From the IMG/VR virus record IMGVR_UViG_3300031884_000939, positions 94,514-158,513 of that record: a stretch of DNA of 64,000 bases. One strand, 5' to 3'. The stretch's first letter is position 1; the number at the start of each line of letters is the position of its first letter. Position numbers and translations under genes: made by a program. Source of the DNA: a virus. The notes beneath the pieces were generated by a model, which worked only from the letters and a program-made list of their open reading frames with translations, was not told the origin of the DNA and searched no databases. Below, piece by piece: positions 22,996 to 58,135 of the stretch.

Positions 22996-23003
22996 ATTAA
23001 TTC

Positions 23004-33873: not shown

Positions 33874-34101
33874 CTATAACCATTTCAATCTAAAATATGT
33901 TGCGTCACTAGGGTTTTCAAATTTAAAAACAAATCCTTCTGTTCCTTTGTAGCCATGTAAATGATATCTGCCGCCCGGGGCTTCGGCAATCCATGCTAGT
34001 ATTTCTCTAATAGGAAAATAAGGTGCGTGGGTTATTTCGTCCCACATTATAATAACCTCTGTCCATTCAGGATATGGATATGTATAATCTATTTTTTCCA
34101 C
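33874..34101 (-). CDS. Small protein, LKW-motif family
   Basis: C-terminus FKFENPSDATYFRLKWL. Confidence 0.7.
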   Translation of the reverse strand: MEKIDYTYPYPEWTEVIIMWDEITHAPYFPIREILAWIAEAPGGRYHLHGYKGTEGFVFKFENPSDATYFRLKWL

Positions 34102-35117
34102 TGTTCGTACAACGATTGGCTTGCTAAATTCTTACCTTTCGATTCGCACATAATATCGAAATTATCTAAGAATGTAAGAGCCCATTCGTTAGTAGCTGTG
34201 TTCCAGTAAAAGTCTGAATGGGCTCTTAGTTTTTGTTTTTTGTAACCGGACTCTAAGAGCGTACCCATACTAGGCGGGGTGGATGTATTATGTCCAACAA
34301 GTACATCCTCTCTACTTACGGAGTAATGGCAAGTAGGACGAGAACCGCGCCAACTATCGCACACACGGCTAACTCTAGGATCTCGCGGTTGGATATATTC
34401 TCCCTCTCGGATCCAATGGTGGTGAATGTCAAGTACAATAGGTACAATGTCACTAATAGTAAGGCAATCATCTAACCCCCAGGCGTTTTCTTCGTTTTCG
34501 ATGGTGATACAGTTACGAGCTTCAAGTGACAATTTTTTGTAGGCTTGTCTAATACCTTCTGGCCCTTGACGACCTGAGATGTGTACGTTAATCTTATAAT
34601 CTTGGAATCTTTTTCCGAAACCCATCCAACGGACCATATCTGCATGATATTCAAATTCCTTTATCGATTGTTCAACAATACCTGGATTGCTACTGGCAAG
34701 AACAGTGAACTGACCAGGATGGAAGCTGAGGCGAATATTGCGAGCCCTAGCAATGTCTCCCACTTGTGCGAAGTGTCTTTCTGCGTATGCCTTGACATCG
34801 GACCTCTGCCAAAAATACGACCAATTGGCATGAGTATAAGCAGGAAGCAAGTCACTGCTGAGACGTACCATACGAAGTGATTCATGTAAATTTCCAACTC
34901 GTTCCACCAACTTTCTTGTTGCTTCAATGTTTTGGACCATTAGGTCCCATAGTTTTTGTTCTGCTACATCACGACTCTGCTTATTCAGCCAAGTAATTGT
35001 AGTACTACCTGTATTGTATTGTTTAGCGTCATCTTTTGGTTTGATGCCAGTTACCTGATCAGGAGTATCAATCCATTTACAAGCAAAGCCAATGTGTGGT
35101 ATAGTCTTAGTCGTCAT
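34089..35117 (-). CDS. uvsE: UV-damage endonuclease
   Basis: IGFACK, RLSSD, RLSFHPGQF.VL.S, EFEYH, TIEN.E, LDIHHH, HYS, AHSDFY, CESK.K. Confidence 0.92.
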   Translation of the reverse strand: MTTKTIPHIGFACKWIDTPDQVTGIKPKDDAKQYNTGSTTITWLNKQSRDVAEQKLWDLMVQNIEATRKLVERVGNLHESLRMVRLSSDLLPAYTHANWSYFWQRSDVKAYAERHFAQVGDIARARNIRLSFHPGQFTVLASSNPGIVEQSIKEFEYHADMVRWMGFGKRFQDYKINVHISGRQGPEGIRQAYKKLSLEARNCITIENEENAWGLDDCLTISDIVPIVLDIHHHWIREGEYIQPRDPRVSRVCDSWRGSRPTCHYSVSREDVLVGHNTSTPPSMGTLLESGYKKQKLRAHSDFYWNTATNEWALTFLDNFDIMCESKGKNLASQSLYEQWKK

Positions 35118-36061: not shown

Positions 36062-38110
36062 ATGCTTCGCAAACTTTTACTCAGTCCATGGACTGCGTTA
36101 ATTACTGTAGGATTAATTACAGCTCTCCGTATTGCCGATCCTACATTTGTCGAATCAGTTCGACTACGCTATTTTGATACCTTAGTTACTAGTAAGGCAC
36201 CAGAAGTTATTGGCGTTCATGTTGTAAACATAGATGAAAAGGCATTAGAAAAATATGGACAATTTCCTTTCAGTCGGGATATCTACGGACGCATTATCTC
36301 CGATCTTTATAATCGCAACGCTGGTCTTGTTGTGTTCAATATTCTTACTCCTGATGGTGATCGTATGGGCAGGGATGGAGCGTATGTACAAGCATTGGGA
36401 AGGTTCCCATCAATTCTGCCAAACTTGGGTTCATCTCAAAATCGCAACAAAGCGAAAGTTCCGGGATCCGTTGTAATAGGTCCTTACAATAATCAAATAG
36501 TAGAATACCCAGGGATCATTGCTAACATACCTGCTGTAGAAAATGCTGCCGCCGGTGTTGGTATTGTAAACACTTTTCCTGAGATAGACGGAGTAGTACG
36601 CCGTGCCCCATTAGTAATTGCTAGTCAAGGTAAATTATATCCTAGTTTAGCTATGGAAACATTACGAGTGGCTGGAGCCGATACTACCTTCCAAGTTAAG
36701 CTCAACGAGAACGGTGTTGAGAAAATGCGTATTCCTGCGTTTGGTCCTATCGCGACAGACAGTCTAAGTCGTATATGGATTGATTGGAGTATGGTTCCCG
36801 AAGTTCATAGCCTTACTGACTTACCTAAAGATTTTGATGGCGAGATAGTCATTGTTGGCGTAAGTGCCGCAGGTCTCGCTAATCCAGTAGCGACAAGTAA
36901 GGGCGAGATGTTGCCACAAGAATTACAAGCGGCTGTACTAGGTACGGTTATTGCTAATAAAGATCGACCAGTTATCACTCGTCCAGATTGGGCTGATGGA
37001 GCAGAAGTCATTGGTTTAGTTATATTAGCTTTGGTATTATTATTTTTAACAAGGTATGTGTATGTTGGACTTATTGCTAGTATTAGTTTCATTGTTCTTC
37101 TTTTGTGTGCTGGGCACTACAGTTATTCGCTTTATAGCTACTTACTTGATGTTACTATTCCTGTCGGTGGTCTTATACTCGTATCTCTTCACGCCTATGG
37201 GGTTAAATTTGTAAGCGAGTTCTTACAGAAGCAAGCAATCAAGAAACAGTTTGCTGGATATGCTAGTCCGACTGTAGTTAAGTTGTTACAAGAAAATCCA
37301 GACTTAATCAAGAAGGGTATCAAGCGTGAAGTATCTATCTGCTTTAGTGACCTTCGTGGCTTTACTCCGTTAGGCGAATCGTTTGGTGATGATGTAGGCG
37401 GACTTACTCGAGTTATGAATGGCTACATGGATGCAATTACACAACCTATCCTAGAAGCTAACGGTATGGTTATTAAGTACATTGGTGATGCGTCAATGCA
37501 CATACACAATGCTCCTATCGATGATCCGGATCATCCTAAGACTGCGGTAGCAGTTGGATTAAAGATGGTCAAGGCTGTTAAGGAATATAGTAAACAGTTA
37601 GAGGCACAAGGTCGTCCTGGTGTTAAGATGGGTGCTGGTATTAACACAGGCTTAGGCTACATTGGCGAAATGGGCTCTACTCAGCGTCACAGTTACGATG
37701 TACTGGGCGATGCTGTATCAACTACAGCTCGTATCGAAAGTAAGTGTAAAGAATATGGATGTGTATTATTGGTTGGAGAAGAAACTGTTAAGCGTTGTGC
37801 GGACGATTACTTCTTTTTAAAGATTGACGACTTGACTGTCAAAGGTAAAAGTGTCGGAGTTGGTATCTACACAGTACTAGATGATGTTACGCCTGAATAT
37901 GTCTTAGCTGGTAAAACACATGATAAAATGCATCAACTATATAGACTTCAAAAGTTTGATGCGGCTATTATATTATGCCAAGAACTTAAAGCAGAGTTCG
38001 ATGGCAAGATGTCAGTTTATTATGATATGTGGATTGAGCGTTGTGAGTTCCAGAAGACGCAGGACCTGCCCGAAGATTGGAACGGCGTCTTCATTGCGAC
38101 TAGCAAATAA
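36062..38110 (+). CDS. CHASE2-domain class III adenylate cyclase
   Basis: CHASE2 (VNIDEKAL..YGQFPFSR, EIDGVVRR.PL); three TM helices; FSDLRGFT, KYIGDA, GINTG..GEMGS.R.SYDVLGDAV..ARIE; C-terminal PEDWNGVF. Confidence 0.92.
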   Translation: MLRKLLLSPWTALITVGLITALRIADPTFVESVRLRYFDTLVTSKAPEVIGVHVVNIDEKALEKYGQFPFSRDIYGRIISDLYNRNAGLVVFNILTPDGDRMGRDGAYVQALGRFPSILPNLGSSQNRNKAKVPGSVVIGPYNNQIVEYPGIIANIPAVENAAAGVGIVNTFPEIDGVVRRAPLVIASQGKLYPSLAMETLRVAGADTTFQVKLNENGVEKMRIPAFGPIATDSLSRIWIDWSMVPEVHSLTDLPKDFDGEIVIVGVSAAGLANPVATSKGEMLPQELQAAVLGTVIANKDRPVITRPDWADGAEVIGLVILALVLLFLTRYVYVGLIASISFIVLLLCAGHYSYSLYSYLLDVTIPVGGLILVSLHAYGVKFVSEFLQKQAIKKQFAGYASPTVVKLLQENPDLIKKGIKREVSICFSDLRGFTPLGESFGDDVGGLTRVMNGYMDAITQPILEANGMVIKYIGDASMHIHNAPIDDPDHPKTAVAVGLKMVKAVKEYSKQLEAQGRPGVKMGAGINTGLGYIGEMGSTQRHSYDVLGDAVSTTARIESKCKEYGCVLLVGEETVKRCADDYFFLKIDDLTVKGKSVGVGIYTVLDDVTPEYVLAGKTHDKMHQLYRLQKFDAAIILCQELKAEFDGKMSVYYDMWIERCEFQKTQDLPEDWNGVFIATSK

Positions 38111-38323
38111 TTAAGCGTAATCCGGAACCTGTGGGTGAGAACCGTCGATAATTTCTGTATGTTGAATTTCGCCTGATTCTGCATCATAAATTTTAAAACT
38201 ATGCGGACCACGATTGTAAGCCAATGCTTTAGCTTCTTCATGTGAGTCAGCAAAATGTTCTTCTGTAAACAAACGACCATCGAACCATGTGAATAATTTT
38301 ACTTTGTGTTTTTTGTGTGACAT
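38111..38323 (-). CDS. Hypothetical protein
   Basis: AAGGA RBS, 70 aa. Confidence 0.6.
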   Translation of the reverse strand: MSHKKHKVKLFTWFDGRLFTEEHFADSHEEAKALAYNRGPHSFKIYDAESGEIQHTEIIDGSHPQVPDYA

Positions 38324-38334
38324 TTTTATTTCCT

Positions 38335-39387
38335 TTATTGTTTAAAATACTTAGTCCAAACTTTGCGAGTTTGGGTCGTATAGTTGGTTAATTTGCGTTG
38401 ATTTAACCATACATTAACTTGTGGCATAACATAGCTTCTGTACAGCTTGTTAGCTATATCGTGACTATTAGTTGGATCAGCATTAAAATAATTACTGCTC
38501 CAAGGAATCTCGACACTACCTACTAACGGAACTCCTTGACTAACTAAGTCAGCACCTACAATGTTAAATGTTTCACTAAAACTAACTTGTAATCCAATGT
38601 CCATTTGAGCACAAATTTTTAAGAAATCTTCTCTAGGACACCATTGATGATTAATCATTTCATGTCCTGTTCCTGCTAATTGCTCAAACAAACCTTTGAG
38701 ATTATTAAGAACAGGGCTACCATTCATTTCGATACGACCAGCATTAACATGGAATCGTAATTTTTTGCCAATGCGCCCAGCAAACTCCAAAGCAGCAAAT
38801 GCTTGCAACAAGTGATTTTTTAATGGGCGGATAGCTCCAAAACATCCAACATCAACATAATCTTTATCTTTGTTAAATTGTTTGGTTACATAATCTTGTG
38901 GATAAAAGTTGGGTTGATATAATACACGGGACCATGTTTGCTGATTGGTCCAGTTATTGCGTACTTGCAAGTAGTTGCGTATTTCTTGTAGCATTCTTGG
39001 AGCATTACAAGAAATGTACACATTCTTAAATGTAGTATAATCACCTACCCAATTTAGGGCATTTCCCTCACCTGCCATAAAAGGCATTTCAGAATGTAAG
39101 CGAATGATCCACTTTACTGTAGGATGTAATTTTTGTAAAATAACAAACTTGCTAGGCACCGACCAAAGTGCTTCAATAATTACGTGTGTTGGCTTGTGTT
39201 TAGTCACTAGTCGATCAATACAGTTATTATCAATAGCAACTTCGAGCACACTATCTAAACCAGCTTCTGTCATCATGTTGTTCATAAAACTAGCAGAATT
39301 ATATAAGCCTGTGGATAACCCCACATGACTGTGTAGCGACGCAGAGTAATCTTCTCTTCGCTTGAGTATGAATAGTGTTTTTGTCAT
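38335..39387 (-). CDS. Divergent GT-B glycosyltransferase
   Basis: GCFGAIRPLKN; DIGLQVSFSETFNIVGAD..S.GVP. Confidence 0.75.
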   Translation of the reverse strand: MTKTLFILKRREDYSASLHSHVGLSTGLYNSASFMNNMMTEAGLDSVLEVAIDNNCIDRLVTKHKPTHVIIEALWSVPSKFVILQKLHPTVKWIIRLHSEMPFMAGEGNALNWVGDYTTFKNVYISCNAPRMLQEIRNYLQVRNNWTNQQTWSRVLYQPNFYPQDYVTKQFNKDKDYVDVGCFGAIRPLKNHLLQAFAALEFAGRIGKKLRFHVNAGRIEMNGSPVLNNLKGLFEQLAGTGHEMINHQWCPREDFLKICAQMDIGLQVSFSETFNIVGADLVSQGVPLVGSVEIPWSSNYFNADPTNSHDIANKLYRSYVMPQVNVWLNQRKLTNYTTQTRKVWTKYFKQ

Positions 39388-39457
39388 TTCGCTGTATGCA
39401 TTAAGAATAATATACAGCTATTTAGTATTATAGCAAAAATTGAAGATTAAATATTTG

Positions 39458-39772
39458 TTACGCACTACCGCCGGAGGCTTCGTTATCGTTTGATGTTTTA
39501 TTGATTTCTGTTTCTGCTTGTACTCGTTCTGCTTCAATACTTTTGCCGCGCAGGTGTAATACAGTATTAACTTTTTGATTTAATCGAATCAAATCATTGT
39601 CCAACATACGGATGCGGTCGATAAGAGCAATAAGAACTGTGTTAGCATCATTGATTACAGGTTTGATTTCTTTGGTTGCCCATTCCCAAACCATGTGAAT
39701 GATAAAGCCCATACCAACCGCCATAACGATTGGGAATCCATATTTGCTAATTGCGTCTGCTATTCCGCCCAT
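39458..39772 (-). CDS. Single-TM coiled-coil protein (YvrJ/holin-like), paralogue A
   Basis: YGFPIV TM segment, then LIDRIRMLDNDLIRL. Confidence 0.6.
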   Translation of the reverse strand: MGGIADAISKYGFPIVMAVGMGFIIHMVWEWATKEIKPVINDANTVLIALIDRIRMLDNDLIRLNQKVNTVLHLRGKSIEAERVQAETEINKTSNDNEASGGSA

Positions 39773-39870
39773 TTTTTCTTCTCTCTTTGATTTCTTGATT
39801 ACAAATTTTTATATACATCTCTAGCCACTTATGTCTGTTAATAACATAGTTGGCTCGATTATATGGCCAT

Positions 39871-40071
39871 TCAACTACCTTGTTCATTCTTAGCCGCACC
39901 ATCTTCTAAAAACTTAACCAACGGGTCTATTTTAATTAACAGTTGCCGACCATTTACATTTACAAACTTAAATAAATCTCCTGATTTCCAACCTAGCTTG
40001 TCAGTGTTAAGCTCTTCGTCTAATACGATTTTATCTTTAGTTAAGTACCACTGGTAATCGTAGTGAAACAT
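39871..40071 (-). CDS. Small AbrB-like hypothetical protein
   Basis: LGWKSGD.F motif. Confidence 0.45.
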   Translation of the reverse strand: MFHYDYQWYLTKDKIVLDEELNTDKLGWKSGDLFKFVNVNGRQLLIKIDPLVKFLEDGAAKNEQGS

Positions 40072-40352
40072 TAATCTCTTCTCGCATCTGTTTTACCGTC
40101 GGCACGACTAATACGATCCACATCTGGGCGTAAACCTAATGCATTGCTAACTACTGTATCGATACGGATGACATCATGGTTCATAGTTTTAACACGGTTG
40201 TCTAATGCTGTAATAATGCCAGCCATACTTTTTACTGCGGATAACACTCCAGCTAATAATAGCTTAATTGTAAGATACACAAAATAGCCGCCAGCTAGCG
40301 CCGCAACGACTGGAAAACCTAGATCACCTACGATCTTGAATACTTCATTCAT
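40071..40352 (-). CDS. Single-TM coiled-coil protein (YvrJ/holin-like), paralogue B
   Basis: LGFPVV TM segment, then LDNRVKTMNHDVIRID. Confidence 0.6.
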   Translation of the reverse strand: MNEVFKIVGDLGFPVVAALAGGYFVYLTIKLLLAGVLSAVKSMAGIITALDNRVKTMNHDVIRIDTVVSNALGLRPDVDRISRADGKTDARRD

Positions 40353-40385
40353 TATAACCCCTTATTATTTTTATTATACTACTAT

Positions 40386-41174
40386 TTAGTTGCCCTGGCG
40401 TACAGTTACCGTTCCGCAGGTAGTTACACAAGTTTGGGTAATACTATAATTTTGACCTCCAGTTTGAGTTAAATTCACACTAGCAGGAGCGCCAGCGTTT
40501 ATTAAGGTTATACTAGCACTATTAGGAGTACTACCGCTTTGATTTACAATAGCACTATTTCCATTTCCGGATTCTGATACATTTAAGTAATGACCAGCTG
40601 ATCCAGATTGCGTGGCTGATACTGTATTACTATTTCCATTAACGCTAGCAAATAGTTGCATTCTTGCCGTACCTGTTTGGGTAATCCCAACTGTGTTTAA
40701 GTCGCCTATAATATTTAAAGTTGCTGATTGGCCAGAGTTTGATGTAGTATTTTGTTGACTCGTAGTAATCATATTATCTGATCCATTAACATAAACATAT
40801 TGATAATGGCCACCAACATCGAGCCCAGTTGATAGTCCAACAACATCTGTTCCTTGGTTTAAATTTAAAATATTCCCAGGACCAATAACTGTCATATCAA
40901 TTTTATTTTTACCAGTGTTAGCAATTGGATCACCTTGTCTTGTTGTGATTTGATTTGCGCCACCACTAACTACAGCAATATGCGTACTTGAATTGAGAGT
41001 ATTGCCGCTTGCTCCTTCTAGAATATTGCTTGTACCGTTTTGTATAAGATTATAAGTGTCGCCTGTACCTATTTGATTAATATAGATAGAATTTGTGGTA
41101 ATAGGTTGTGAATGTGCCATAGGACTACAATATCCTAACCCAGCAACAAGAATGATTAATAAAAATTTTACCAC
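40386..41174 (-). CDS. Secreted curlin-repeat protein (CsgA/CsgB-like)
   Basis: Signal peptide; repeated Q-x-G-x-x-N units (INQIGTGD, LIQNGTSN, ATQSG, VNQSG, LTQTG); terminal CxxxC. Confidence 0.75.
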   Translation of the reverse strand: MVKFLLIILVAGLGYCSPMAHSQPITTNSIYINQIGTGDTYNLIQNGTSNILEGASGNTLNSSTHIAVVSGGANQITTRQGDPIANTGKNKIDMTVIGPGNILNLNQGTDVVGLSTGLDVGGHYQYVYVNGSDNMITTSQQNTTSNSGQSATLNIIGDLNTVGITQTGTARMQLFASVNGNSNTVSATQSGSAGHYLNVSESGNGNSAIVNQSGSTPNSASITLINAGAPASVNLTQTGGQNYSITQTCVTTCGTVTVRQGN

Positions 41175-41854
41175 GATTTACTAACTCCTAACACCCAAGC
41201 GTTGCGATATAACTCATGCCCATCGACTGTATTAACTGTTTTAAAGTCTGCGCTTAGACCGCTGTTCCAATAATATGAAACAGATACATCTACGTCAAAT
41301 ATGTTATATGTAGGGCCAACTCGCCAGTCAGTGTAACTTAACCACGTAACAGGACTAACTGTTCGGCCAGCATGACTTACTAGTGTTATCTCTTTTATAG
41401 GCAAATAATTGTCTACGCTGTAATATTGTGTGCCTACAGTATTAGCAACACCAAACTCATTAGTTAAACTGCGATAATATTTAAATGTAAAATAAGGAAC
41501 ACGTAACTGAGCAAAAACTTCATTAGTATAATAGTTAGTAGCTCCAGGATAGTTATAAGTGTAATCCCCTACAAATATTTTTACATCATCATTAAATTTA
41601 TAATGATAGCCACCATACACATCAGCTTCTCCGCCGATACCATTATTGTATTCCTGTTTGCTTACTGTATTAAGTTTATTGCCCAACCATACTCCGCTAT
41701 CGTCACGATATTCTATTTGACTAGCTATACTTGGCGCCATATTAGATTGACTAACACCACGGAATCTATAATCGCTAACTACTCCTTCGGTTATATCAAT
41801 TGTACCTGCGTAGACAGGAGAACAAAATAATAAAATTAATAATATTCGTTTCAT
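41168..41854 (-). CDS. Outer-membrane beta-barrel (TorF-family putative porin)
   Basis: Signal peptide; SDYRFRGVSQS, EADVYGGY, Y.DW.VG; aromatic C-terminal residue. Confidence 0.8.
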   Translation of the reverse strand: MKRILLILLFCSPVYAGTIDITEGVVSDYRFRGVSQSNMAPSIASQIEYRDDSGVWLGNKLNTVSKQEYNNGIGGEADVYGGYHYKFNDDVKIFVGDYTYNYPGATNYYTNEVFAQLRVPYFTFKYYRSLTNEFGVANTVGTQYYSVDNYLPIKEITLVSHAGRTVSPVTWLSYTDWRVGPTYNIFDVDVSVSYYWNSGLSADFKTVNTVDGHELYRNAWVLGVSKSW

Positions 41855-41855
41855 A

Positions 41856-43016
41856 TTAGTTCTGCTTCGTTGTTATAAAAGTATTGCCACCTTGATTAAC
41901 ACGGTTAGTAATTGTTACATTGCCCGCCTGTGTTTGGCTAATAGTACTATTTTGTCCATGTGGGGTTGTAACGCAACTAGTATTACTATTAGCATCTCCT
42001 CGACATAACTGTACTGATATTGGATCTACTGTGGCTACCACACCAGTTTTACTATTGTAATCGGGTAACAGTTGATTTTTAGGAGGCGCAAGCAAATTAC
42101 CAAATTCTTGTGCTAGCTGTTCATTCATTAATTGTAATATACTTTCAAGAAAATCTTGGTCTAATAAATTACGCTGTAAGGCATTAGAATATATTTGATT
42201 GTTTTCAGCGGCTAGTACACTACTTAAATCAACTCCTTGTAAAAAATTTTGACTTAAGGCCGTAACATTTTGATGCTTTTCGTCATCTCTTTCTTTTGTC
42301 GCATTTTTAATTTCTTGTGGAGGTGCTAATATTAATATGTTACTTATTGCGTCTTCTGATAGATGTAATGTTGTTGGTTTTGTCGGAGCGACATTTCGAG
42401 CTACCACTTTGGTTCCTTGAAATGGTTGATCTAATAATACACTACCCGCTTCATTAATAACTTCAATTTTTCCAGTTTTACACAAACGCTCTATTTCGTC
42501 TGGAAGCATATCTTTACGAGGGCAAGACGGTAATAAAATAACAGTACTTGCGCCAAGCTCATCTACTGTAGCGGTAAAGTCAGTACCCCGGACAGCCACA
42601 GTAGCAGTAGGAGTATTAATAGCCACGCTATTAGGATTGTTGTGAGCAATGGCACCACTAGCGTATCGAACAGTACCCGAAGCCATGTTAAGAGCCAGTT
42701 TACCAACTCCTTTACTTTTTGGATCATATACGAATTCATCAATAACGAGTTTAGAATTTTCATTTACTTGTACTTTTGTATCGTCGGCGAAAACAATTAC
42801 AACTTTACCTTGTTTCGTGTTTATTGCGTCGGCCATCTCCACCCCAGTCCCCTTTGTCCCGGGTAGAGTCGTCTTGGCTCTTTGAATCTGAGCTGGATTG
42901 TTTACTTGTTCGGTAATAGTTCCTATTGCGGCTTCGCAGTTCGTGTAAGTATTGAACAAGCCCACGCAAAACATGACTATCCATAATTTTAATCTCCCTT
43001 TTCGAACCAATAACAT
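41856..43016 (-). CDS. FecR-domain exported protein with a curlin-like C-terminal tail (exact start uncertain)
   Basis: D.I.T...I.F.DDT.V.V.ENSKLVIDEFVYDP, G..RYASG, TPTATVAVRGTDF. Confidence 0.85.
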   Translation of the reverse strand: MLLVRKGRLKLWIVMFCVGLFNTYTNCEAAIGTITEQVNNPAQIQRAKTTLPGTKGTGVEMADAINTKQGKVVIVFADDTKVQVNENSKLVIDEFVYDPKSKGVGKLALNMASGTVRYASGAIAHNNPNSVAINTPTATVAVRGTDFTATVDELGASTVILLPSCPRKDMLPDEIERLCKTGKIEVINEAGSVLLDQPFQGTKVVARNVAPTKPTTLHLSEDAISNILILAPPQEIKNATKERDDEKHQNVTALSQNFLQGVDLSSVLAAENNQIYSNALQRNLLDQDFLESILQLMNEQLAQEFGNLLAPPKNQLLPDYNSKTGVVATVDPISVQLCRGDANSNTSCVTTPHGQNSTISQTQAGNVTITNRVNQGGNTFITTKQN

Positions 43017-43162
43017 TTTTGTAATTCTCTCATTAATTGGTCTTTCGATTCGTGTGTAAGTCTGTGGGCTAATTCTACAAAGTCCACGGCTCTACTAGCA
43101 ACATTAGACTGACCATCGCTCCACTGTTGATATACTGTTTTTAGGAAACGAAGGTCTGCCAT
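42989..43162 (-). CDS. 57-aa hypothetical protein inside the curli-like operon
   Basis: ATG 1 nt after the curlin stop. Confidence 0.45.
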   Translation of the reverse strand: MADLRFLKTVYQQWSDGQSNVASRAVDFVELAHRLTHESKDQLMRELQKCYWFEKGD

Positions 43163-43163
43163 A

Positions 43164-44069
43164 TTAATGATGTTGTACGATTGTCCAGTTGTTACTACCA
43201 CCACTACTTTGAATATTTGTGGTATTATTACCTGTTGTGGCACTTTGGGTAACATTAAATGTATTGCCGCTTCCAGTCAATCCTAGCACAAAAGTATTAT
43301 CTGCTGTGCCTGTTTGACTAGCTGTAAGACTATTGCTAGATCCTGTTAAAGAACCAACAACAGATATTCCAGTAGCATTATATCCGCCTACAGTAATAGT
43401 ATCACCATTTGTTCCACCGGTTTGTGTAATGCCAAAAGTATTACTTGCTCCAGTGCTATTTAATGTAACTGCTGCGTTAGTAGCTACAGTAGTTGAGTTA
43501 CCTTGAACAAGATTTAAACTATTATTGCCACCGCCGTTCATTACAATGGTATCAGCATTACTTGTGCCATATATACTAGCAACTACAGAATTATATGTTC
43601 CACCAGCAGTAGTAGCTGTGAAGTTATTTCCTGTACCTAATAAATTAATATTTAAATTAGAATAATTGCCAGTTTGTGTTACTGCGATATTATTACTTGC
43701 GCTAGTATCAGAGCCATCGTTATTACTATTAATAACAGCGGTAGCATTATTACCTGTTACAGAGTAACTATAATTGTTACCGGTTAATCCATTAGCTACA
43801 CTTGTTTGTATTCCAAATTGTAATGTATTACCAGTACCAATTTGACTAACTGATACGATATTATTGTTACCAACAATAACGGCTGGCGTGGTAGCACTTG
43901 TACCTGTGCCTTGTACGCCTTCTACTGCGTTTCCTGCGCCATCTTGTGTAACAGAAATACTACTGTTACCTCCTGATTGATTAATGTAGATGGTATTATC
44001 AGCACCAAACACATTTAAACTTGCTACAGCTAGCATTGTTATTATTGTTTTCGCTAGGTTTATTTTCAT
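43164..44069 (-). CDS. Secreted curlin-repeat protein (major curlin-like)
   Basis: Signal peptide; N.IYINQSG, VTQDGAGN, VSQIGTGN, VTQTGN, LLGTGNN, ASQTG, LTGSGN repeats; very few charged residues. Confidence 0.78.
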   Translation of the reverse strand: MKINLAKTIITMLAVASLNVFGADNTIYINQSGGNSSISVTQDGAGNAVEGVQGTGTSATTPAVIVGNNNIVSVSQIGTGNTLQFGIQTSVANGLTGNNYSYSVTGNNATAVINSNNDGSDTSASNNIAVTQTGNYSNLNINLLGTGNNFTATTAGGTYNSVVASIYGTSNADTIVMNGGGNNSLNLVQGNSTTVATNAAVTLNSTGASNTFGITQTGGTNGDTITVGGYNATGISVVGSLTGSSNSLTASQTGTADNTFVLGLTGSGNTFNVTQSATTGNNTTNIQSSGGSNNWTIVQHH

Positions 44070-44096
44070 TTTACTTCTTCCTTTGGTCTTAGACCA

Positions 44097-45059
44097 TTAT
44101 TTTACAATTCCTATTTTTGCCTCTACATCTGCTGGTAAACTCGGATTTTTAGACATACCGAGTGGAATTGTTGCGGTGCCGTTTGCTTCTGGATTTGGAA
44201 CTACTGGTGCTACTTGGACATAATCCCAAACACCTTTGCGTTGCCCTTCTTTAATTAATTCTACTACACTTGATTCAATAGTTGTTTTAAGTGCTATTGT
44301 TGTAGCTTCGTTAATTGTTAATCCAGATTCAAATTGAAATATTGCTGCTGCCGCATCTGTTGCGCCGTTGTTACTAGCGCCTACTTGTTTAACTATACTG
44401 CTTATGCCACCTGGATCAATACTTTTAAAAATGGCAATACTATCTGCGGTACTGTAAACAATCTTTGTAACGGTTACCGACGCTAAGATTTTACCAGTGT
44501 TTACACTTACTGCTCGTAAACTAATTGTAATAATATCTTTACTGTATTGAGTCGATGGGCCAATACCTAGGAAATTATATCCAATGCCCCCTGACTCTAA
44601 CCCAGTGTCGTAACCAATAATCCCACCTTCAATAATAACTCCAGCAAATTGTAGTGGCATTAATTTCTGTGCGTCTTTACCTTCATAGGCTTGGCGCATC
44701 TGTGTAATAATTAATCTTTCTTTAGTAAGCGCATCAATATTACCGCGCTCGACTACTTCAAACCATTGACCTTTACCTACATCTTGTAAGGCACGAATCA
44801 GTAAAGCATCTCCGCCTTGTGTAACCGCTGTACTAAAACTAGCAATACCCGGAACGGCTTTACGCTGTCCAGTTTTATCAGCGAACTGATATACTGCTAC
44901 AGTAAGTTTGCCTTTGGCTGGAGGAGGTACAGCATCAAATTCTTTTTGTAGTTCATTTTTAGGAATTTGCGGTTTATGATCCGGGACACCAATTTTCTGG
45001 CCTATAGCACAACCAGATAACATAACGATTAAGACTAATGTAGGAAATAATTTACGCAT
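44097..45059 (-). CDS. csgG: Curli secretion channel CsgG-like lipoprotein
   Basis: Lipobox LSGC; VAVYQFADKTGQRK, FSTAVTQG, WFEVVER..IDALTKER.II, IIEGGIIGYD, LRAVSVNTG.IL. Confidence 0.92.
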   Translation of the reverse strand: MRKLFPTLVLIVMLSGCAIGQKIGVPDHKPQIPKNELQKEFDAVPPPAKGKLTVAVYQFADKTGQRKAVPGIASFSTAVTQGGDALLIRALQDVGKGQWFEVVERGNIDALTKERLIITQMRQAYEGKDAQKLMPLQFAGVIIEGGIIGYDTGLESGGIGYNFLGIGPSTQYSKDIITISLRAVSVNTGKILASVTVTKIVYSTADSIAIFKSIDPGGISSIVKQVGASNNGATDAAAAIFQFESGLTINEATTIALKTTIESSVVELIKEGQRKGVWDYVQVAPVVPNPEANGTATIPLGMSKNPSLPADVEAKIGIVK

Positions 45060-45526
45060 TATTGACCGCTTCCTGTGATATTAAATGAGCCAAGCGGAAC
45101 ATTAATTGTAGTAATATTTCCTACATTGTCTGTTACTTGAAGTTGAATTACCGATCCAGTATTAGTCCAGAAAATTGTATTGCCTTGAAAATTCATTTGT
45201 CCGCTAGTAGAGCTTCCACCGGCAAACATAGCTGTAGCTAAATTTTGACTAATCTGTGCGTAAATGCGAGATTCAAGATTAGTTAAAAATTGATTGATTG
45301 GTGTGTTAGCGGCGTCAGCTTTTGCTTGGGCTTGGGCTGCAATTAGAGCCTGTTGAATTGCCTGTGAACGAGCATATTGTTCGTTTTCTAAAGCCATTTG
45401 AAATGAGCCGTAACCGTTTCCGTTAAGACTTGGGCTTTTAAATTGATAATCCGCTATAGGCGTTGCGACGGCTTGTAAGGAGATCGCAGATAAACATAGC
45501 AGAGTCGTTCTTATTATTATTTTCAT
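45059..45526 (-). CDS. csgF: Curli assembly protein CsgF-like
   Basis: Signal peptide; YQFKSPSLNG.GY...EN; F..NLESRIYAQIS; TTINVP; directly upstream of csgG. Confidence 0.8.
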   Translation of the reverse strand: MKIIIRTTLLCLSAISLQAVATPIADYQFKSPSLNGNGYGSFQMALENEQYARSQAIQQALIAAQAQAKADAANTPINQFLTNLESRIYAQISQNLATAMFAGGSSTSGQMNFQGNTIFWTNTGSVIQLQVTDNVGNITTINVPLGSFNITGSGQ

Positions 45527-45620
45527 ACTCTCGCTCCTACTATTATTTAACAGTAAAAAGCAAGTAGTTAAGTTATGTTATAACTTGTTCTAGAGCAAAA
45601 GGTTAGCTCTGGGGAGAATG

Positions 45621-45971
45621 TTATTTTGCTATAATTCCTGTCCAGGACTCGTCTGGCTCGTTTTCTTTGTATTCTATAAGGCGTTTAGCAAGGATTTCAT
45701 AGAAGGTATCAACTTGTTTGCCCCAGAAGCCCATTAAATGTCCAATGGCTTGAGTACAGAAATCCCAGTTACGCTTACGATATTGCTCCATCATATCAGA
45801 ATGAAGTTTTTTGAATTTGTCAGCTTTAGGCAGTTCTTCAAGGGGTATATTTTCGATAATACAGTACACAGTAATGGGAGTACTGCTTTTAATAGTAACG
45901 GTATCTAACTCAAGTACAATATACTTCTCGCTAAGTTGTTCTGCTTCGCTGGTGCCAAAAATAATATTCAA
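45621..45971 (-). CDS. Stand-alone homologue of the cyclase C-terminal helical (TPR-like) domain
   Basis: LELDTVTIK...VYCI...YRKRNWD...FYE....R....PDESWTGII aligns by eye with cyclase LKIDDLTVK...IYTV...YRLQKFD...YYD....R....PEDWNGVF. Confidence 0.65.
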   Translation of the reverse strand: MNIIFGTSEAEQLSEKYIVLELDTVTIKSSTPITVYCIIENIPLEELPKADKFKKLHSDMMEQYRKRNWDFCTQAIGHLMGFWGKQVDTFYEILAKRLIEYKENEPDESWTGIIAK

Positions 45972-45997
45972 TCTGTATCTCCTGTTAAATAATTATC

Positions 45998-46786
45998 ATG
46001 ATATTCAACTTTGATTTAATTTCCGACATCCACAGAGAAACTTGGGCAAACTTTGATTGGGAAGGTCAACCGACTGCGCCATATTGTATTGTAGCAGGTG
46101 ATATAGCAAGAGACCGAGCATTAGTAATAGATACCTTAGAACAACTTAGCGAAGTATATCAAGGAGTGTTTTACATTGACGGTAATGATGAACATAAAGA
46201 TTACGGCGAAGATTTAGGTCGTAGTTATGCTGAATTAAATGATTTAATAAAAGCAATGCCCAAGGTTGTGTATATGCAAGACAATGTTGTAATCATAAAT
46301 GGTATTGCTATTGTAGCAACAAATGGGTGGTGGACTTACGACTTTGATTGTAACTTAGAATTAGATCAATCAATACAGTGGGTACAACAGAAAGATAGTA
46401 TTACACAGGAAGCGGCGATAAACATCAATGGTGTAGGGTACAACGATGCGGGATACATGGCAAATGGTGTACAAAAATTACAAGCCCACAGGGATGTCAA
46501 AGCAATCATCATGGTAACGCATACCGTGCCCCGAGCAGAAATTATCGAACATGATTTAGAATTAATTGATACTTGGCGATTTAACTCTATGGGCAATAGT
46601 CATATGACTAATGCGTTACGAGAAGACTTAGAGCATAAAGTTAAACTTTGGTGTTTTGGTCATTATCATAGACCAGTTGATACTATAATCGATGGTATTA
46701 GATATGTTAGCAATCCTCGGGGAAGAGGCGATACTCAATATTCTCAAGTGGCCTACTATCCCAAAAGAATTAGCGTAAAAATTTAA
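45998..46786 (+). CDS. Calcineurin-like metallophosphoesterase
   Basis: SDIH, VAGD, GNDEH, TH, FGHYH, NPRG. Confidence 0.85.
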   Translation: MIFNFDLISDIHRETWANFDWEGQPTAPYCIVAGDIARDRALVIDTLEQLSEVYQGVFYIDGNDEHKDYGEDLGRSYAELNDLIKAMPKVVYMQDNVVIINGIAIVATNGWWTYDFDCNLELDQSIQWVQQKDSITQEAAININGVGYNDAGYMANGVQKLQAHRDVKAIIMVTHTVPRAEIIEHDLELIDTWRFNSMGNSHMTNALREDLEHKVKLWCFGHYHRPVDTIIDGIRYVSNPRGRGDTQYSQVAYYPKRISVKI

Positions 46787-47091
46787 ACAGTTTCTGGTTC
46801 TAGTTTAATCTGTAACGGCATATCTTGTGACCGAGCACAAACTGTAACTTCAATACCTTTTTGTTCAGCTACTTCGTATGGCAATACTGCTACTACTGCT
46901 GATCCAGCTTCGTGAATATCTTGAGTAATCTTTACCGCAGAGTCTGGTGTGTAATCAAAAAAGTTCATTAAAGATTCGATAACAAATTCCATAGTTGTGC
47001 CGGTATCATTTAAATAGATAACTTTAAACATAGGTGGTTCTTTAAGTTCATTATTAACTTGTATTTGTGTAACGATATCTGCTTGTGACAT
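46783..47091 (-). CDS. clpS: Clp protease adaptor ClpS
   Basis: PPMFKVIYLND..TTMEFVI..L..FF, IHEAG.AVV...YEVAE.K, PLQ..LEP. Confidence 0.92.
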   Translation of the reverse strand: MSQADIVTQIQVNNELKEPPMFKVIYLNDTGTTMEFVIESLMNFFDYTPDSAVKITQDIHEAGSAVVAVLPYEVAEQKGIEVTVCARSQDMPLQIKLEPETV

Positions 47092-47152
47092 ACTATTCCT
47101 TTGTTTTTAGTAGGGGGCATAATTGCCCCCGTACTGTATTTACTATATTATA

Positions 47153-47593
47153 TTACGATTCGTATGTAATAGCAATAGTTTTAGGCTGAAGTGCTTCAGG
47201 AATATGGCGCTCTAACTTAACCGTTAAGATACCATTCTTTACCGATGCTGTAATTACTTCTACATGATCGGCTAAACTGAATGTACGGATAAAGCGTCTG
47301 TCACTAATACCTTTGTGTGTATATTCTACACCTTCTGGTAATTCTTCTGGTAACTTTTCGCCAGTAATAACCAAATTACTATCACGAACTGCTACTTCGA
47401 TTTCACCTTGAGTAAATCCAGCTACAGCCACTTGAACTTCAAACGTGTTCTCGCCGGTTTTCAAAATGTTATATGGCGGATAGTTTTGTGTACTAGCCGT
47501 ATCAATTTGATTAATAATTCGATCAAATAGTTTATCGACTCCGATAGAGTTACGATAGAATGGGTTTAAATCTAATGCTGTGAGTTTAGTCAT
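47153..47593 (-). CDS. Small heat-shock protein (IbpA/Hsp20 family)
   Basis: NYPPYNI, AVAGF, HKGIS.R.F.RTFSLA, A..KNGIL.V.L. Confidence 0.93.
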   Translation of the reverse strand: MTKLTALDLNPFYRNSIGVDKLFDRIINQIDTASTQNYPPYNILKTGENTFEVQVAVAGFTQGEIEVAVRDSNLVITGEKLPEELPEGVEYTHKGISDRRFIRTFSLADHVEVITASVKNGILTVKLERHIPEALQPKTIAITYES

Positions 47594-47651
47594 TTTATTC
47601 TCCTTAATTAAGCAAGACTAATGTGTGGGCCCGACTATCGGCACCCACACT
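47594..47651 (-). promoter_or_regulatory. Structured 5'-UTR (hairpin plus ROSE-like anti-SD), copy 2
   Basis: GTGTGGG-TG-CCGA-TAG-TCGG-G-CCCACAC, then CTTGCTTAATTAAGGAG. Confidence 0.7.
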
Positions 47652-47658
47652 ATTTTTA

Positions 47659-49557
47659 CTACTTTTCAGTAAAGTCAGCGTCTACGACATTGTCGTCATC
47701 GGCTGGCTTAGCTGACTCTTGTGGCTCAGCAGCAGGTTGTGCTGCTTGTGCCTTTGCTTCTTGAATAGCCTGCGAGGCTGTTATTAAAGCGGTTACTGCC
47801 TTTTGGATTTCGTCCCTATCAGTACCTTTGACTGCTTCTTCTACAGCCTTGATAGCTGTGTTGATATCGTCAATTTGTGTACCGCTAAGGCTACTGCTAG
47901 TTTCATCTAGGTCCTTACGGATCTCGTGTACCATAGCATCAGCAGAGTTGCGAGCTTGGATGAGTTCAACTTGTTTCTTATCATCTTCCGCATTAGCTTC
48001 TGCTTCTTTAATCATCTTTTGAATTTCATCATCTGACAATCCTGAGTTTGCTTTAATAGTAATCTTGTTTTCTTTGCCTGTGGTTTTATCCTTGGCTTTA
48101 ACACTTAAGATACCATTTGCGTCAATATCAAGCTCAACGTCAATTTGTGGTTGACCTCGGCGTTGTGGCTGGATGCCTTCTAAACTAAACTCGCCTAAGA
48201 GTTTATTGTAAGAGCATAACTCGCGCTCGCCTTGATAAACTTTAATTGTAACTGCTGGTTGGTTATCTTCGGCAGTACTAAACACTTGATTAGCCTTAGT
48301 AGGAATCGTAGTGTTCTTTTTAATCAACTTAGTCATTACACCGCCCATAGTTTCAATGCCTAATGACAATGGGGTAACATCAAGTAACAATACGTCTGTA
48401 CGGTCGCCGCCTAATACAGCACCTTGAATAGCCGCACCAGCCGCTACTGCTTCGTCTGGATTAACATCTTTGCGTGGTGCTTTACCAAACAGCTTCTCAA
48501 CTGTTTCTTGTACTTTAGGCATACGAGTCATGCCACCAACAAGAATAACCTCGTCGATATCGCTGTTACTTACACCCGCATCAGACATGGCAGTCTTACA
48601 TGGGCCTACGGAACGTTGAATCAATTCATCAACTAAACTTTCAAATTTAGCACGAGAGATGGTAACATTCAAATGCTTAGGACCACTTGCGTCTGCTGTA
48701 ACATATGGTAAGTTAACAGTAGTAGACTGTGCTGAAGACAATTCAATCTTAGCTTTTTCTGCGGCATCTTTCAAACGCTGTAATGCTAACACATCACTTT
48801 TAAGGTCACATCCAGATTCTTTCTTAAACTCATCACAGAGGTAATCCATAATGCGTTGGTCAAAGTCTTCGCCGCCCAAGAATGTATCGCCGTTAGTTGA
48901 CAATACTTCAATCTGCTTGTCGCCATCCACATTGGCAATTTCGATAATGGACACATCAAATGTACCACCACCTAAGTCATACACGGCAATTTTACGATCC
49001 TTAGTACTTGCTTTATCAACGCCATATGCTAGTGCGGCCGCTGTTGGCTCGTTGATAATGCGTAGAACTTCTAAGCCCGCAATTTTACCTGCGTCTTTGG
49101 TAGCTTGTCTTTGGCTGTCATTGAAGTATGCTGGTACAGTGATAACGGCTTGTGTAACTGTCTCACCTAAATAGTCTTCGGCAGTTTTTTTCATCTTACG
49201 CAATACTTCAGCAGATACTTGTGGTGGTGCCAAATCTTGGCCATTTGCTTGAATCCAAGCATCACCATTATCAGCTTCGATAATTTTGTAAGGCATCAAG
49301 TTGATGTCTTTTTGTACAGCTTCTTCTTTAAATTTACGACCAATCAAACGCTTTGCAGCATAGATTGTGTTCGATGGGTTTGTAACTGATTGGCGTTTAG
49401 CTGTAGCACCAACTAATACTTCGTCGGCTGTATAGGCGACAATACTTGGTGTAGTTCTAGCACCTTCTGCGTTTTCAATTACTTTTGGAATGTTATTTTC
49501 GATTACGGAAACACAGGAATTTGTAGTTCCCAAATCTATGCCGATGATTTTGCTCAT
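47659..49557 (-). CDS. dnaK: Chaperone DnaK (Hsp70)
   Basis: [55 protein letters not shown]. Confidence 0.98.
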
Positions 49558-49627
49558 GTTGTTTTCTCCTTTAATTAAGCAAGTAACTTCTTACGAACCC
49601 AAACTACGGCATTCGTAGAAGTATTTA
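49558..49627 (-). promoter_or_regulatory. TAAATA promoter plus structured 5'-UTR, copy 3
   Basis: TAAATA; CTTCT-ACGAA-TG-CC..GG-G-TTCGT-A-AGAAG; then CTTGCTTAATTAAAGGAG. Confidence 0.65.
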
Positions 49628-49669
49628 TGGTACTACAAAATCATTATATACAAATATTATTCGGTTAAG

Positions 49670-50032
49670 TTAAGCATTTCTGATAACCAGTTTAGCTTTA
49701 ATTTTAGTAGGGCTAAAATGTTTCTTTACTACCTTTTCTGCCGTTTTTGGATTAAACTTTTTACAGCTAAACACATCAATGTATGCCGTTCTATCTTGAT
49801 CCATAAAGTGTCCAGTAATGTTACTAGTTTGTATTAGCTGAACTAAACTGTATCCACTGTTTGGATGTCCATCGAGCAAATACTTAATTACTGGTTTGCC
49901 CACTGCTTCCATTTTAATTTGCTCTACCAAGTCTTTGATAAACTCTTTTAATTTAGCTTTACTATTGATATTGTCATTCATGCCTTGGCAATCCAGCATT
50001 AGGTGGTAACCCCATGGTTTGATTTTTTTCAT
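49670..50032 (-). CDS. speD: S-adenosylmethionine decarboxylase proenzyme
   Basis: WGYHLMLDC, GYSLVQLIQTSNITGHF, YIDVFSCKKF. Confidence 0.85.
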   Translation of the reverse strand: MKKIKPWGYHLMLDCQGMNDNINSKAKLKEFIKDLVEQIKMEAVGKPVIKYLLDGHPNSGYSLVQLIQTSNITGHFMDQDRTAYIDVFSCKKFNPKTAEKVVKKHFSPTKIKAKLVIRNA

Positions 50033-50254
50033 TTAAAATAATTTTTTAGGTAATTGTTGATCGCGGAGTTTTTTGCGCCATCTAGCTTTGGCAGCGCCTT
50101 TTTTACGCTTGCGTTCAGTAGTTGGTTTTTCGTAAGTTTCACGGGCACGAAGGTCATCAAGTAATCCAGATTCCTGGACTTTCTTTTTGAATTTTCTGAG
50201 GGCTTTTTCGACGTTGCCGTCTTTAACTAATACCCCTTTACCGTAATACGTCAT
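50033..50254 (-). CDS. rpsU: Ribosomal protein bS21
   Basis: V...[15 protein letters not shown]....[20 protein letters not shown]. Confidence 0.93.
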
Positions 50255-51441
50255 TCATTCTCCTGAGCAAGTGTTCTAGGAGTATTTACTAGATTTGACG
50301 TAATTGAGACGGTTTTTATACTTTGCTTACGATAGCGTGGCAAATCGTACATATGGGGTAGCAATATGCGTTCTAATTCAGAATGTAGGCCACGAGCCCC
50401 AGTTTTTGTTTTTAAAGTGCGTTCAGCTATAAGATCCAATGATTCATCTTCAAAATATAGTTCTACGCCATCTTGATCAAATAGCCACTGATACTGCTCT
50501 ACAAAATTGTGTTTAATATCGACTAAAATACTAATTAGCTGTTCTTTGGTCAACCCGTGTAACGATACAGAACTGCTAAAGCGACCAATAAATTCTGGAA
50601 TCATGCCATACTTGACTAAATCGTCTGGAGTTACTATTTCGTTGTCTACGCTTAAATCTGTAGTAAGATTTGCCCCAAACCCCATAGCGGTTCCTTGGAT
50701 ACGATTTTTAACTATTTTTTCTAGTCCCACAAATGCGCCGCCAGCGATGAATAAAATATTAGTGGTGTCAACTTCTATAGTAGCTTCAGTTTTTCTGCCG
50801 CCAGTAGGGTTAATTTTAATTTTAGTACCTTCTACTAATTTAAGCAAGGCCTGCTGAACACCTTCGCCTGATACATCACGACTAACCGTAGCGGATTCGG
50901 ACTTGCGAGCAATTTTATCAATCTCGTCTAGGAAGATAATGCCACGCTGAGTGCGCTCAAGGTCATTATCAGCATTTTGATATAATCTTAAAATAACGCT
51001 ATCAACATCGTCGCCGACATATCCAGCTTCAGTTAATGTAGTAGCGTCGGCTATTACGAATGGGACATTTAAATATTCTGCTAAGGTTTTTGCTAATAAT
51101 GTTTTACCGGTGCCTGTCGGCCCAATCATTAATATATTAGATTTAGCAACTTCGTTGTCTGCGCTACTAATTCTTTTATAATGATTAGTAATTGCTACAG
51201 ATAACACAATCTTGGCTTCGGGTTGACCAACTACATACTGGTCGAGATATTCTTTAATCTCGCGAGGATTAGGAATTTCTATTGTTGAAGAAGATTTAGC
51301 AGAATGCTTTTTATCTTTTAATAGTTTATCGCAAAAGGTTACACATTCGCTACATATAGCAACTTCGTGTCCTACAATTAGTCTACCTACGGAACTTTTA
51401 TGTTTTCCGCAAAATGAACAGTGATCAATTTTTTCTGACAT
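50251..51441 (-). CDS. clpX: ATP-dependent Clp protease ATPase subunit
   Basis: CSFCG...CSEC zinc finger, [44 protein letters not shown] loop, GARGL. Confidence 0.96.
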
Positions 51442-57928: not shown

Positions 57929-58135
57929 TCAACCGGGCACTACATCATGGGTTACACGGATATTTGTAGGGGTTCCTAGCTTGACTTCGCGAGCTGGCTT
58001 ACACTCTGCTTTCATACTAGTAAACTTTTCAGCATAGTAAGCCTGTTTTTCTTGACAATGTTCTTGGCTCAAATATACCGAATGAACTGTATAATTGCCA
58101 GGATTTGCCATCCAAAATATTAATGCCCATTTCAT
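57929..58135 (-). CDS. Small protein with a Cys pair
   Basis: MKWALIF...C...C.P. Confidence 0.5.
   Translation of the reverse strand: MKWALIFWMANPGNYTVHSVYLSQEHCQEKQAYYAEKFTSMKAECKPAREVKLGTPTNIRVTHDVVPG

Follow-up and report, generated by a model that had tools for sequence, protein, structure and literature searches.

A freshwater, rearranged copy of the viral curli-FecR-adenylate cyclase cassette in a very large phage

Genes at the locus

We analyzed the final 64 kb of the 158,513-bp IMG/VR virus record IMGVR_UViG_3300031884_000939 (the window, 64,000 nucleotides), and within it an 11-kb region (positions 36062-46786) in which an earlier note, made from the sequence alone, had described genes for curli secretion, a FecR-domain protein and a CHASE2 adenylate cyclase. 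When the open reading frame (ORF) listing was combined with Pfam searches, every gene named in that note was found at its place with the domains ascribed to it. The core genes, with window coordinates and lengths in amino acids (aa), are:

45059-45526, minus strand: CsgF, channel-cap and nucleation factor (PF10614 E 7.5e-14, model positions 5-132/132)
44097-45059, minus strand: CsgG lipoprotein, outer-membrane channel (PF03783 E 2.1e-41; lipobox LSGC)
43164-44069, minus strand: curlin A, secreted curlin-repeat protein, 301 aa (Curlin_rpt 22.5 bits, cut-off 20.7)
41856-43016, minus strand: FecR-fold protein, exported (PF04773 E 1.7e-10)
40386-41174, minus strand: curlin B, secreted curlin-repeat protein, 262 aa (Curlin_rpt 17.5 bits, under the cut-off of 20.7)
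40071-40352, minus strand: GFP-motif bitopic membrane protein G1, 93 aa (phrog_18771 E 4.8e-32), the 'HK' of the published cassette
39458-39772, minus strand: GFP-motif bitopic membrane protein G2, 104 aa (phrog_18771 E 1.2e-27)
36062-38110, plus strand: CHASE2 and class III nucleotide cyclase (CHASE2 E 1.3e-34; Guanylate_cyc E 2.6e-16)

The csgF and csgG genes are adjacent, with the csgF stop overlapping the csgG start at 45059, and csgG is followed by a curlin, FecR and a second curlin, with a 57-aa ORF and a TorF-type outer-membrane barrel interleaved. Export signals were found in CsgF, CsgG (the lipobox), both curlins, FecR and the barrel.

This assembly, of which the earlier note knew no description as a single functional phage system, is already in the literature as a type VIII secretion system (T8SS)-FecR-cyclase cluster. 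Zaragoza-Solas et al. (2020) reported csgF and csgG with neighboring genes in pelagimyophages, in a region that they called hypervariable (PMC7029224), and Buchholz et al. (2022) discussed the pore in phage Melnitz (PMC9004378). The full cluster, comprising 'HK', CsgF, CsgG, CsgA/B, FecR, a second CsgA/B and an adenylate cyclase, was described by Wittmers et al. (2022) in podoviral and myoviral pelagiphages, where it co-varies across ocean stations and for which an alphaproteobacterial origin was proposed (PMC9599517). The window holds a freshwater, rearranged copy of this viral type VIII secretion (curli)-FecR-adenylate cyclase cassette, which is known from T4-like and podoviral phages of aquatic habitats, and for the window itself our result is mostly confirmatory.

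The published copies in cultured phages (Methylophilales phage Melnitz gp97-104 and Pelagibacter phage HTVC008M gp011-019) have the same gene set as the window. Identity to Melnitz is 36-37% for CsgG and 50% for the cyclase, and both cyclases belong to a subtype with Ser in place of a transition-state Asn. Unlike the published cassette, the window copy comes from lake water and from a much larger phage (158.5 kb representing about 45% of the genome); its cyclase is inverted and detached, so that the published gene content is present without the cyclase at the operon end; its GFP-motif pair is found downstream and not upstream; FecR is followed by a TorF-type barrel; and a free cyclase C-terminal-domain gene and small ORFs are interleaved.

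Conservation of the cassette across viral loci

We retrieved 77 IMG/VR loci with CsgG and FecR queries, mapped the window proteins onto them by tblastn, and merged overlapping loci to leave 31 distinct loci of at least 14 kb. CsgF, CsgG and FecR were each found in 31/31 of these, and, CsgG and FecR having served as bait, the informative counts are those of the CHASE2 cyclase (28/31) and of the GFP-motif pair (26/31). A recognizable curlin A was present in 26/31 and a recognizable curlin B in 24/31. Most loci have the same layout on one strand, [GFP1 GFP2] CsgF CsgG curlin FecR curlin cyclase, and Melnitz (OM43 host) and HTVC008M (SAR11 host) show this canonical order, with the genes so annotated in their records. 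The CHASE2 receptor and FecR lie within 4 kb of each other in the window and are adjacent or nearly adjacent in relatives. The proposal that the curli genes, FecR, the CHASE2 cyclase and the GFP-motif pair form one conserved unit is thus borne out by their co-occurrence in the 31 loci, Melnitz and HTVC008M; the earlier note had named separation of the cyclase and FecR genes from csgG/csgF in related phages as evidence that would count against it, and in these neighborhoods the genes do occur together.

This conservation bears on whether the curli genes, the FecR/cyclase pair and the GFP-motif pair are instead separate auxiliary genes that share one hypervariable region. The window genes do lie on two strands, unrelated ORFs are inserted among them (those for the 350-, 66- and 57-aa products and the barrel), and hypervariability of the region has been described (PMC7029224). 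However, gene order and adjacency persist in both myoviruses and podoviruses as protein identity falls from about 90% to 31-38% (PMC9599517), and the FecR tail appears adapted to the curlins (see below); we therefore disfavor independence and give it only a slim chance. Functional linkage of the core genes is supported by synteny.

Curli secretion genes

The CsgG of the window matched the Escherichia coli CsgG structures with phmmer (E 5e-39). Compared with the E. coli protein in an alignment read by eye, its constriction loop has Y51 replaced by V and N55 by S, with F56 kept, and unlike the canonical protein it has a C-terminal extension. Among relatives the CsgG length ranges from 268 to 434 residues, reflecting such C-terminal extensions.

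Curlin A and curlin B are paralogous (E 7e-8), and Q-x-G-x-x-N repeats of about 11 and about 22 residues are visible in the curlin-like proteins, and the NCBIfam CsgA equivalog scores far under its cut-off. Curlin B ends in a Cys loop followed by a phi-x-phi-x-Q end (phi, hydrophobic). The AlphaFold (AF2) model of curlin A is a beta-solenoid with a predicted local distance difference test score (pLDDT) of 77.7. A Foldseek search of this model against the Protein Data Bank (PDB) gave nothing at E<=0.001; in a wider structure search the best of 48,161 PDB representatives was CsgA of Pontibacter korlensis (8c50, Z 24.1, 23% identity), and generic beta-helices came next at Z of about 16 (16.1 for the following match). 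Weak profile scores, the repeats, the paralogy and a predicted beta-solenoid nearest to CsgA together point to a curlin identity for both proteins. Curlin B varies from 153 to 852 residues among relatives (for example in L016, L031, L050 and L072), and the lengths of curlin A, CsgF and FecR are much more even than those of curlin B or CsgG.

The locus resembles enterobacterial curli operons (csgBAC/csgDEFG) in having a CsgG lipoprotein channel, CsgF and secreted Q-x-G-x-x-N repeat proteins with a CsgA-like solenoid model. In contrast to those operons, no match to CsgE (PF10627) was found in the 158.5-kb record, which is about 45% complete (an E. coli control was positive), and neither CsgD nor CsgC turned up in Pfam scans of the cassette ORFs. 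The curlins are also 2-6x longer than CsgA.

The pair of secreted curlin-repeat proteins, with their CsgA-like predicted fold, and the accompanying CsgG and CsgF are what would be expected if the cassette served fiber production, an idea proposed in PMC7029224 and PMC9599517. Under this explanation ('sibling capture'), a curli-like amyloid coat would keep neighboring hosts close and FecR and the cyclase would only regulate it. However, Melnitz cultures examined by Buchholz et al. with cytometry and transmission electron microscopy showed no clumping (PMC9004378), and the retention of a receptor cyclase and FecR in nearly every copy is left unexplained. We regard fiber production as the principal purpose as unlikely, while still giving it appreciable weight.

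FecR protein and its phage-specific tail

The FecR protein consists of a signal peptide, a FecR beta domain, a helical linker and a curlin-like C-terminal beta unit. In the family alignment the FecR domain is highly conserved, the linker is variable, and the C-terminal unit is conserved again, ending in N-R-x-N-x-G-G-N-T-x-I-T-x-x-Q-N, where the Gln is invariant. The AlphaFold model (pLDDT 73.7) likewise has a signal helix, a confident beta domain, a low-confidence helical linker and a C-terminal beta unit of six strands. The beta domain resembles the periplasmic signaling domains of PupR and of a Bacteroidetes anti-sigma factor (Foldseek E 3e-4 to 1e-3).

Using a hidden Markov model of the FecR tail, we found that real phage curlins outscored their own shuffles with a mean z of 3, and 19/35 curlins scored above all 20 of their shuffles. 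The tail and curlin B also have a common C-terminal end, phi-x-phi-x-Q-x-x. The resemblance of the tail to curlin repeats thus appears to go beyond composition. The curlin-like tail was absent from the bacterial FecR partners that we compared (see below). We noted, as a lead only, that the tail unit weakly resembles in structure the domain that anchors an RTX adhesin at the surface (5ix9, E 9e-3). One search returned more than 6000 FecR-type relatives, of which the best 120 matches were all phage-like metagenome proteins.

CHASE2 cyclase and its free C-terminal domain

The cyclase has a transmembrane (TM) segment, a periplasmic CHASE2 domain (residues ~24-308), a TM bundle (309-380), a cyclase domain (420-610) and a conserved C-terminal helical domain that ends in ..W-x-G..K. 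The gene runs opposite to the other cassette genes and lies 2.3 kb from curlin B; the same inversion was found in L042 and L051 only.

The residues that we take, from established knowledge of class III cyclases, to be catalytic are present: the metal-binding Asp residues D430 and D476, Lys K472, the purine/adenine-pocket Asp D546 and the transition-state Arg R557. The transition-state Asn of the V-N-x-A-x-R motif is replaced by S553 (A-V-S-T-T-A-R). This Ser-type cyclase, with Asp at the purine-pocket position, also occurs in Melnitz, L031, L021, L034, L046, L050 and L059. In a second subtype (HTVC008M, L013, L042, L051 and others) the canonical set is complete, including Thr and V-N-L-A-S-R-L-E, and the bacterial homologs retain the transition-state Asn. 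The subtype does not track the genome backbone: L042 and L051, the nearest backbone relatives of the window, are of the Asn type, and the window cyclase is nearest to those of L040 and L076 (78-79%). This mismatch suggests allele exchange within the cassette. At L060 (14101-16765) the cyclase gene is apparently split into a CHASE2 half of 333 aa and a cyclase/C-terminal half of 365 aa.

A gene upstream of csgF encodes a free copy of the cyclase C-terminal domain:

45621-45971, minus strand: stand-alone cyclase C-terminal domain homolog, 116 aa (BLASTP E 1e-8 to the last ~115 cyclase residues)

Its tblastn matches land on the C-termini of cyclases from phages and bacteria, and such free copies are found in about half of the related loci. 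In the protein atlas the 116-aa protein matched only nameless viral clusters, with Guanylate_cyc as a sub-threshold lead.

We also looked for domains that bind cyclic nucleotide monophosphates (cNMPs) and found none in the 158.5-kb fragment, the complete Melnitz and HTVC008M genomes or three large related contigs.

Bacterial relatives of the sensor half

We searched a profile built from the phage FecR alignment against one genome per prokaryote species and followed this with tblastn. At loci of Alphaproteobacteria, Myxococcota and other deltaproteobacteria, Planctomycetes, Omnitrophota, Elusimicrobia and Spirochaetes, a bacterial FecR homolog had a full-length CHASE2 cyclase (27-35% identity, C-terminal domain included) no more than about 2 kb away. 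The gene directly upstream of the bacterial FecR encodes a protein of 440-490 aa that combines TPR repeats with a SlipAM/DUF2860-type barrel, for which there is no counterpart in the phage cassette. The expectation that CHASE2 cyclases stand beside FecR and outer-membrane proteins in bacteria was thereby verified, and it agrees with published clusters: a Campylobacterota cluster contains a CHASE2 cyclase, a phosphodiesterase, a FecR-domain protein and a TPR protein (PMC9239204), and a Burkholderia operon contains FecR and a CHASE2 kinase (PMC5192318).

The bacterial clusters are like the phage cassette in pairing an exported FecR-domain protein with a CHASE2 membrane receptor, in the architecture of the cyclase (including the C-terminal W-x-G...K domain), and in encoding an outer-membrane component alongside. 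They differ in that this component is the TPR and SlipAM/DUF2860 barrel, without CsgG, CsgF or curlins; in that FecR is without the curlin-like tail; and in that the GFP-motif pair is missing, save on contigs that are probably mis-binned phage. Those contigs (L081-L086 and L091) belong to metagenome-assembled genomes (MAGs) labeled Flavobacteriaceae, Luteolibacter, Rhodobacteraceae, Legionellales, Pirellulales and Rickettsiales and carry the whole phage cassette, including the GFP-motif pair; they are probably phage DNA mis-binned into MAGs and not bacterial curli-cyclase operons. In the true bacterial FecR-CHASE2 loci that we examined, those of SAR11 included, there was no CsgG and no CsgF. 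In bacteria, then, FecR and CHASE2 come with a TPR/Slam-like barrel but never with CsgG. We therefore read the phage cassette as two modules joined, with the curli apparatus standing where the barrel would be.

In SAR11 single-cell genomes the trio is also present, with SpoIIE/PP2C as the output in place of the cyclase. In Pelagibacteraceae L106 (8614-10498) and L121 (6584-11542), a CHASE2-SpoIIE(PP2C) receptor, a DUF2860/SlipAM-type barrel and a FecR-domain protein are encoded in a row. Pelagiphages with the cassette thus infect hosts that have a related sensor themselves, and the phage FecR or cyclase might interfere with it.

The best-studied comparison is the clr-cyaD1-smc02177 cluster of Sinorhizobium meliloti with the NsrA barrel (PMC5498481, PMC7529298). 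There, the CHASE2 cyclases CyaK and CyaD1/D2 act downstream of the outer-membrane barrel NsrA (PMC7529298), and the NsrA/CHASE2 system responds to free ribosomal protein uL2 in cell extracts (PMC7529298; PMC13001267). The FecR-domain gene beside cyaD1 is dispensable for signal perception and behaves as a target of cyclic AMP (cAMP) and Clr (PMC5498481).

Small GFP-motif membrane proteins

G1 and G2 are paralogous (pairwise E 1e-10) and belong to a family with two orthologous groups, whose members of about 90-130 residues have G-F-P at the start of the membrane helix and then a conserved L..R......D.IR helix. The window genes are orthologous to the pair upstream of csgF in Melnitz-type loci and stand here downstream of curlin B. 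Their published label as a histidine kinase finds no support: at 93 and 104 aa they contain no kinase domain in Pfam even at E<=10, and no His is conserved across 45 family members. In the protein atlas the GFP protein matched only nameless viral clusters, with YvrJ as a sub-threshold lead (score 0.89).

The earlier note had called the pair holin-like, for which the sole support is a marginal match to holin phrog_4898 (E 0.0086 and 0.0029); their own family, phrog_18771, is without an assigned function, and the label is not established. It bears on an explanation by lysis timing, proposed for Melnitz (PMC9004378), in which CsgG/CsgF would be a gated outer-membrane channel or pinholin-like device, the GFP-motif pair would act like holin and antiholin, and the cyclase would signal lysis. 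The small size and bitopic topology of the GFP proteins would suit such a role, as would the weak holin match (E 0.003-0.009), but this match is not significant and YvrJ, the nearest named family, is only a lead. Moreover, an outer-membrane channel would be unable to depolarize the inner membrane, the endolysin is encoded separately, 12 kb off (58132-58656), with no link to the cassette, and a pore needs no curlin substrates. We consider a lysis-timing device very improbable.

A proposed envelope sensor

We lean, with slightly better than even confidence, towards reading the locus as a copy of the known viral curli-FecR-cyclase cassette in which two bacterial modules have been fused into an envelope sensor. 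Its genes are intact and encode export signals or membrane segments, the cyclase has the topology of a receptor, and the core is inherited together across deep divergence. The first module would be a minimal curli secretion set (CsgG pore, CsgF cap and two curlin-repeat substrates), and the second a widespread bacterial envelope sensor (CHASE2 receptor, periplasmic FecR-fold partner and outer-membrane barrel), with the CsgG/CsgF/curlin apparatus presumably replacing the barrel in the phage version. CsgG and CsgF would form an outer-membrane channel that exports both curlin-repeat proteins. FecR would be exported to the periplasm, where its curlin-like C-terminal strand probably forms the link to the curlins or the pore and the FecR domain probably contacts the CHASE2 domain. 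The cyclase would then set the level of cAMP (or a related cNMP) in the infected cell, and host proteins would read this signal, as no cNMP-binding domain was found in the phages examined. The two GFP-motif inner-membrane proteins would be obligate companions.

Several points weigh against this reading. All phage copies are known from sequence, and their function is inferred from it and from predicted structures. The window cyclase would not be co-transcribed with the cassette because it lies on the opposite strand, 2.3 kb off what we took as the nearest cassette gene (curlin B), and the Ser in place of its transition-state Asn may lower or alter cyclase activity. With no CsgE found, ordered curlin secretion of the E. 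coli kind is not assured, and the lack of a cNMP-binding domain in the phages examined leaves the signal without a receiver of their own. By analogy with S. meliloti, where the FecR-domain gene is dispensable for perception and is cAMP-regulated, FecR may be an output rather than an input.

The roles in sensing, aggregation and lysis timing that the earlier note had put forward are speculation. A chimeric surface-to-cytoplasm sensor in the full sense, in which the barrel has been swapped for a curli pore and fiber, FecR is tethered to the fiber or the pore by its tail, and surface events set cAMP and with it the course or timing of infection, seems to us a long shot. If it were true, the surface cues could be virions, cells, or proteins from lysed neighbors, as with NsrA/CHASE2 and uL2, and the result would be a decision resembling lysis inhibition, built from borrowed bacterial parts. 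Sensing of lysed neighbors is conceivable for a phage because the NsrA system of S. meliloti responds to free uL2.

Few multi-gene auxiliary modules of aquatic phages are as widespread as this cassette, which would supply hosts that have neither curli nor cyclases with a new envelope structure and a source of second messenger. To the published description we add the probable descent of the sensor half from bacterial CHASE2-FecR-barrel clusters, the curlin-like FecR tail, the unfounded nature of the 'kinase' label, and the Ser-for-Asn cyclase. The results on descent, tail and label make the annotation testable in Melnitz with OM43 and in HTVC008M with SAR11.

Neighboring genes outside the core

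The remaining ORFs of the region are the following:

38111-38323, minus strand: 70-aa ORF, accessory neighbor (no family match; tblastn matches only in L042, L043 and L046)
38335-39387, minus strand: 350-aa protein, accessory neighbor (no Pfam, PHROG or NCBIfam match; in 6/31 loci)
39871-40071, minus strand: 66-aa ORF between the two GFP-motif genes (no family match)
41168-41854, minus strand: Gcw_chp/TorF-family outer-membrane barrel (Pfam E 1.1e-22; TIGR02001 78.5 bits, cut-off 47)
42989-43162, minus strand: 57-aa ORF without an export signal, overlapping the FecR start (no family match)
45998-46786, plus strand: metallophosphoesterase (phrog_1649 E 1.4e-26; just under the Pfam cut-offs)

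By tblastn, the 66-aa ORF is kept at 49-63% in about 10 loci and the 57-aa ORF at 48-79% in a subset of close relatives.

Two further genes that the earlier note had counted with its assembly do not belong to the cassette in general. The TorF-type barrel was found in only 1/31 loci besides the window (the L004/L030 contig) and is a rare insertion between FecR and curlin B. As a candidate remnant of the bacterial TPR barrel partner it was rejected at the sequence level (hhalign probability 0.6%). The metallophosphoesterase accompanies the cassette in 3/31 loci, those of the nearest relatives only, and belongs to a generic phage family, phrog_1649, with a second member elsewhere in the window (1379-2299, E 8.7e-47); it is probably outside the cassette. 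We also considered it as a CpdA-type cAMP phosphodiesterase and found neither membership in a cAMP-specific family nor co-inheritance with the cyclase; its best NCBIfam match was a generic 'putative phosphoesterase', far under the cut-off.

Genome setting

The record is from a very large freshwater phage, because its CheckV completeness is about 45%, relatives of the FecR protein sit on contigs of up to ~380 kb, the stretch recurs in about 20 sequencing runs of lake water/freshwater metagenomes, and phage-type genes (DNA ligase, ribonucleotide reductase small subunit, endolysin and tail-like proteins) occur in the window. Its phage origin follows from the IMG/VR record, from these genes and from the presence of the cassette in cultured T4-like phages as well. 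A megablast of the 11-kb region against cultured phages gave no match, the relatives being detectable at the protein level only. T4 portal, tail tube and Gp23 families were not found in the 158.5-kb fragment, with controls that were uninformative, and the missing half of the genome probably holds the structural genes. The T4 late promoter (TATAAATA) had 3 sites in the 64 kb, below chance expectation, and 0 in the cassette, and scans of the window for sigma-70 promoters and terminators gave results at chance level.

The cassette is adjoined by a chaperone/protease block (46783-51441), and the endolysin gene lies farther along:

46783-47091: ClpS
47153-47593: HSP20
47659-49557: DnaK
50251-51441: ClpX-like AAA+ protein with a zinc finger
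58132-58656: endolysin

ClpS flanks the cassette in 18/31 related loci and HSP20 in 19/31; the ClpS-HSP20-DnaK-ClpX block is a separate chaperone module and a frequent neighbor. On the other side, a UvdE UV-damage endonuclease is encoded just upstream of the cyclase (34089-35117, E 8.6e-42), and a beta-lactamase-fold protein farther upstream (21829-23016, E 1.4e-20).

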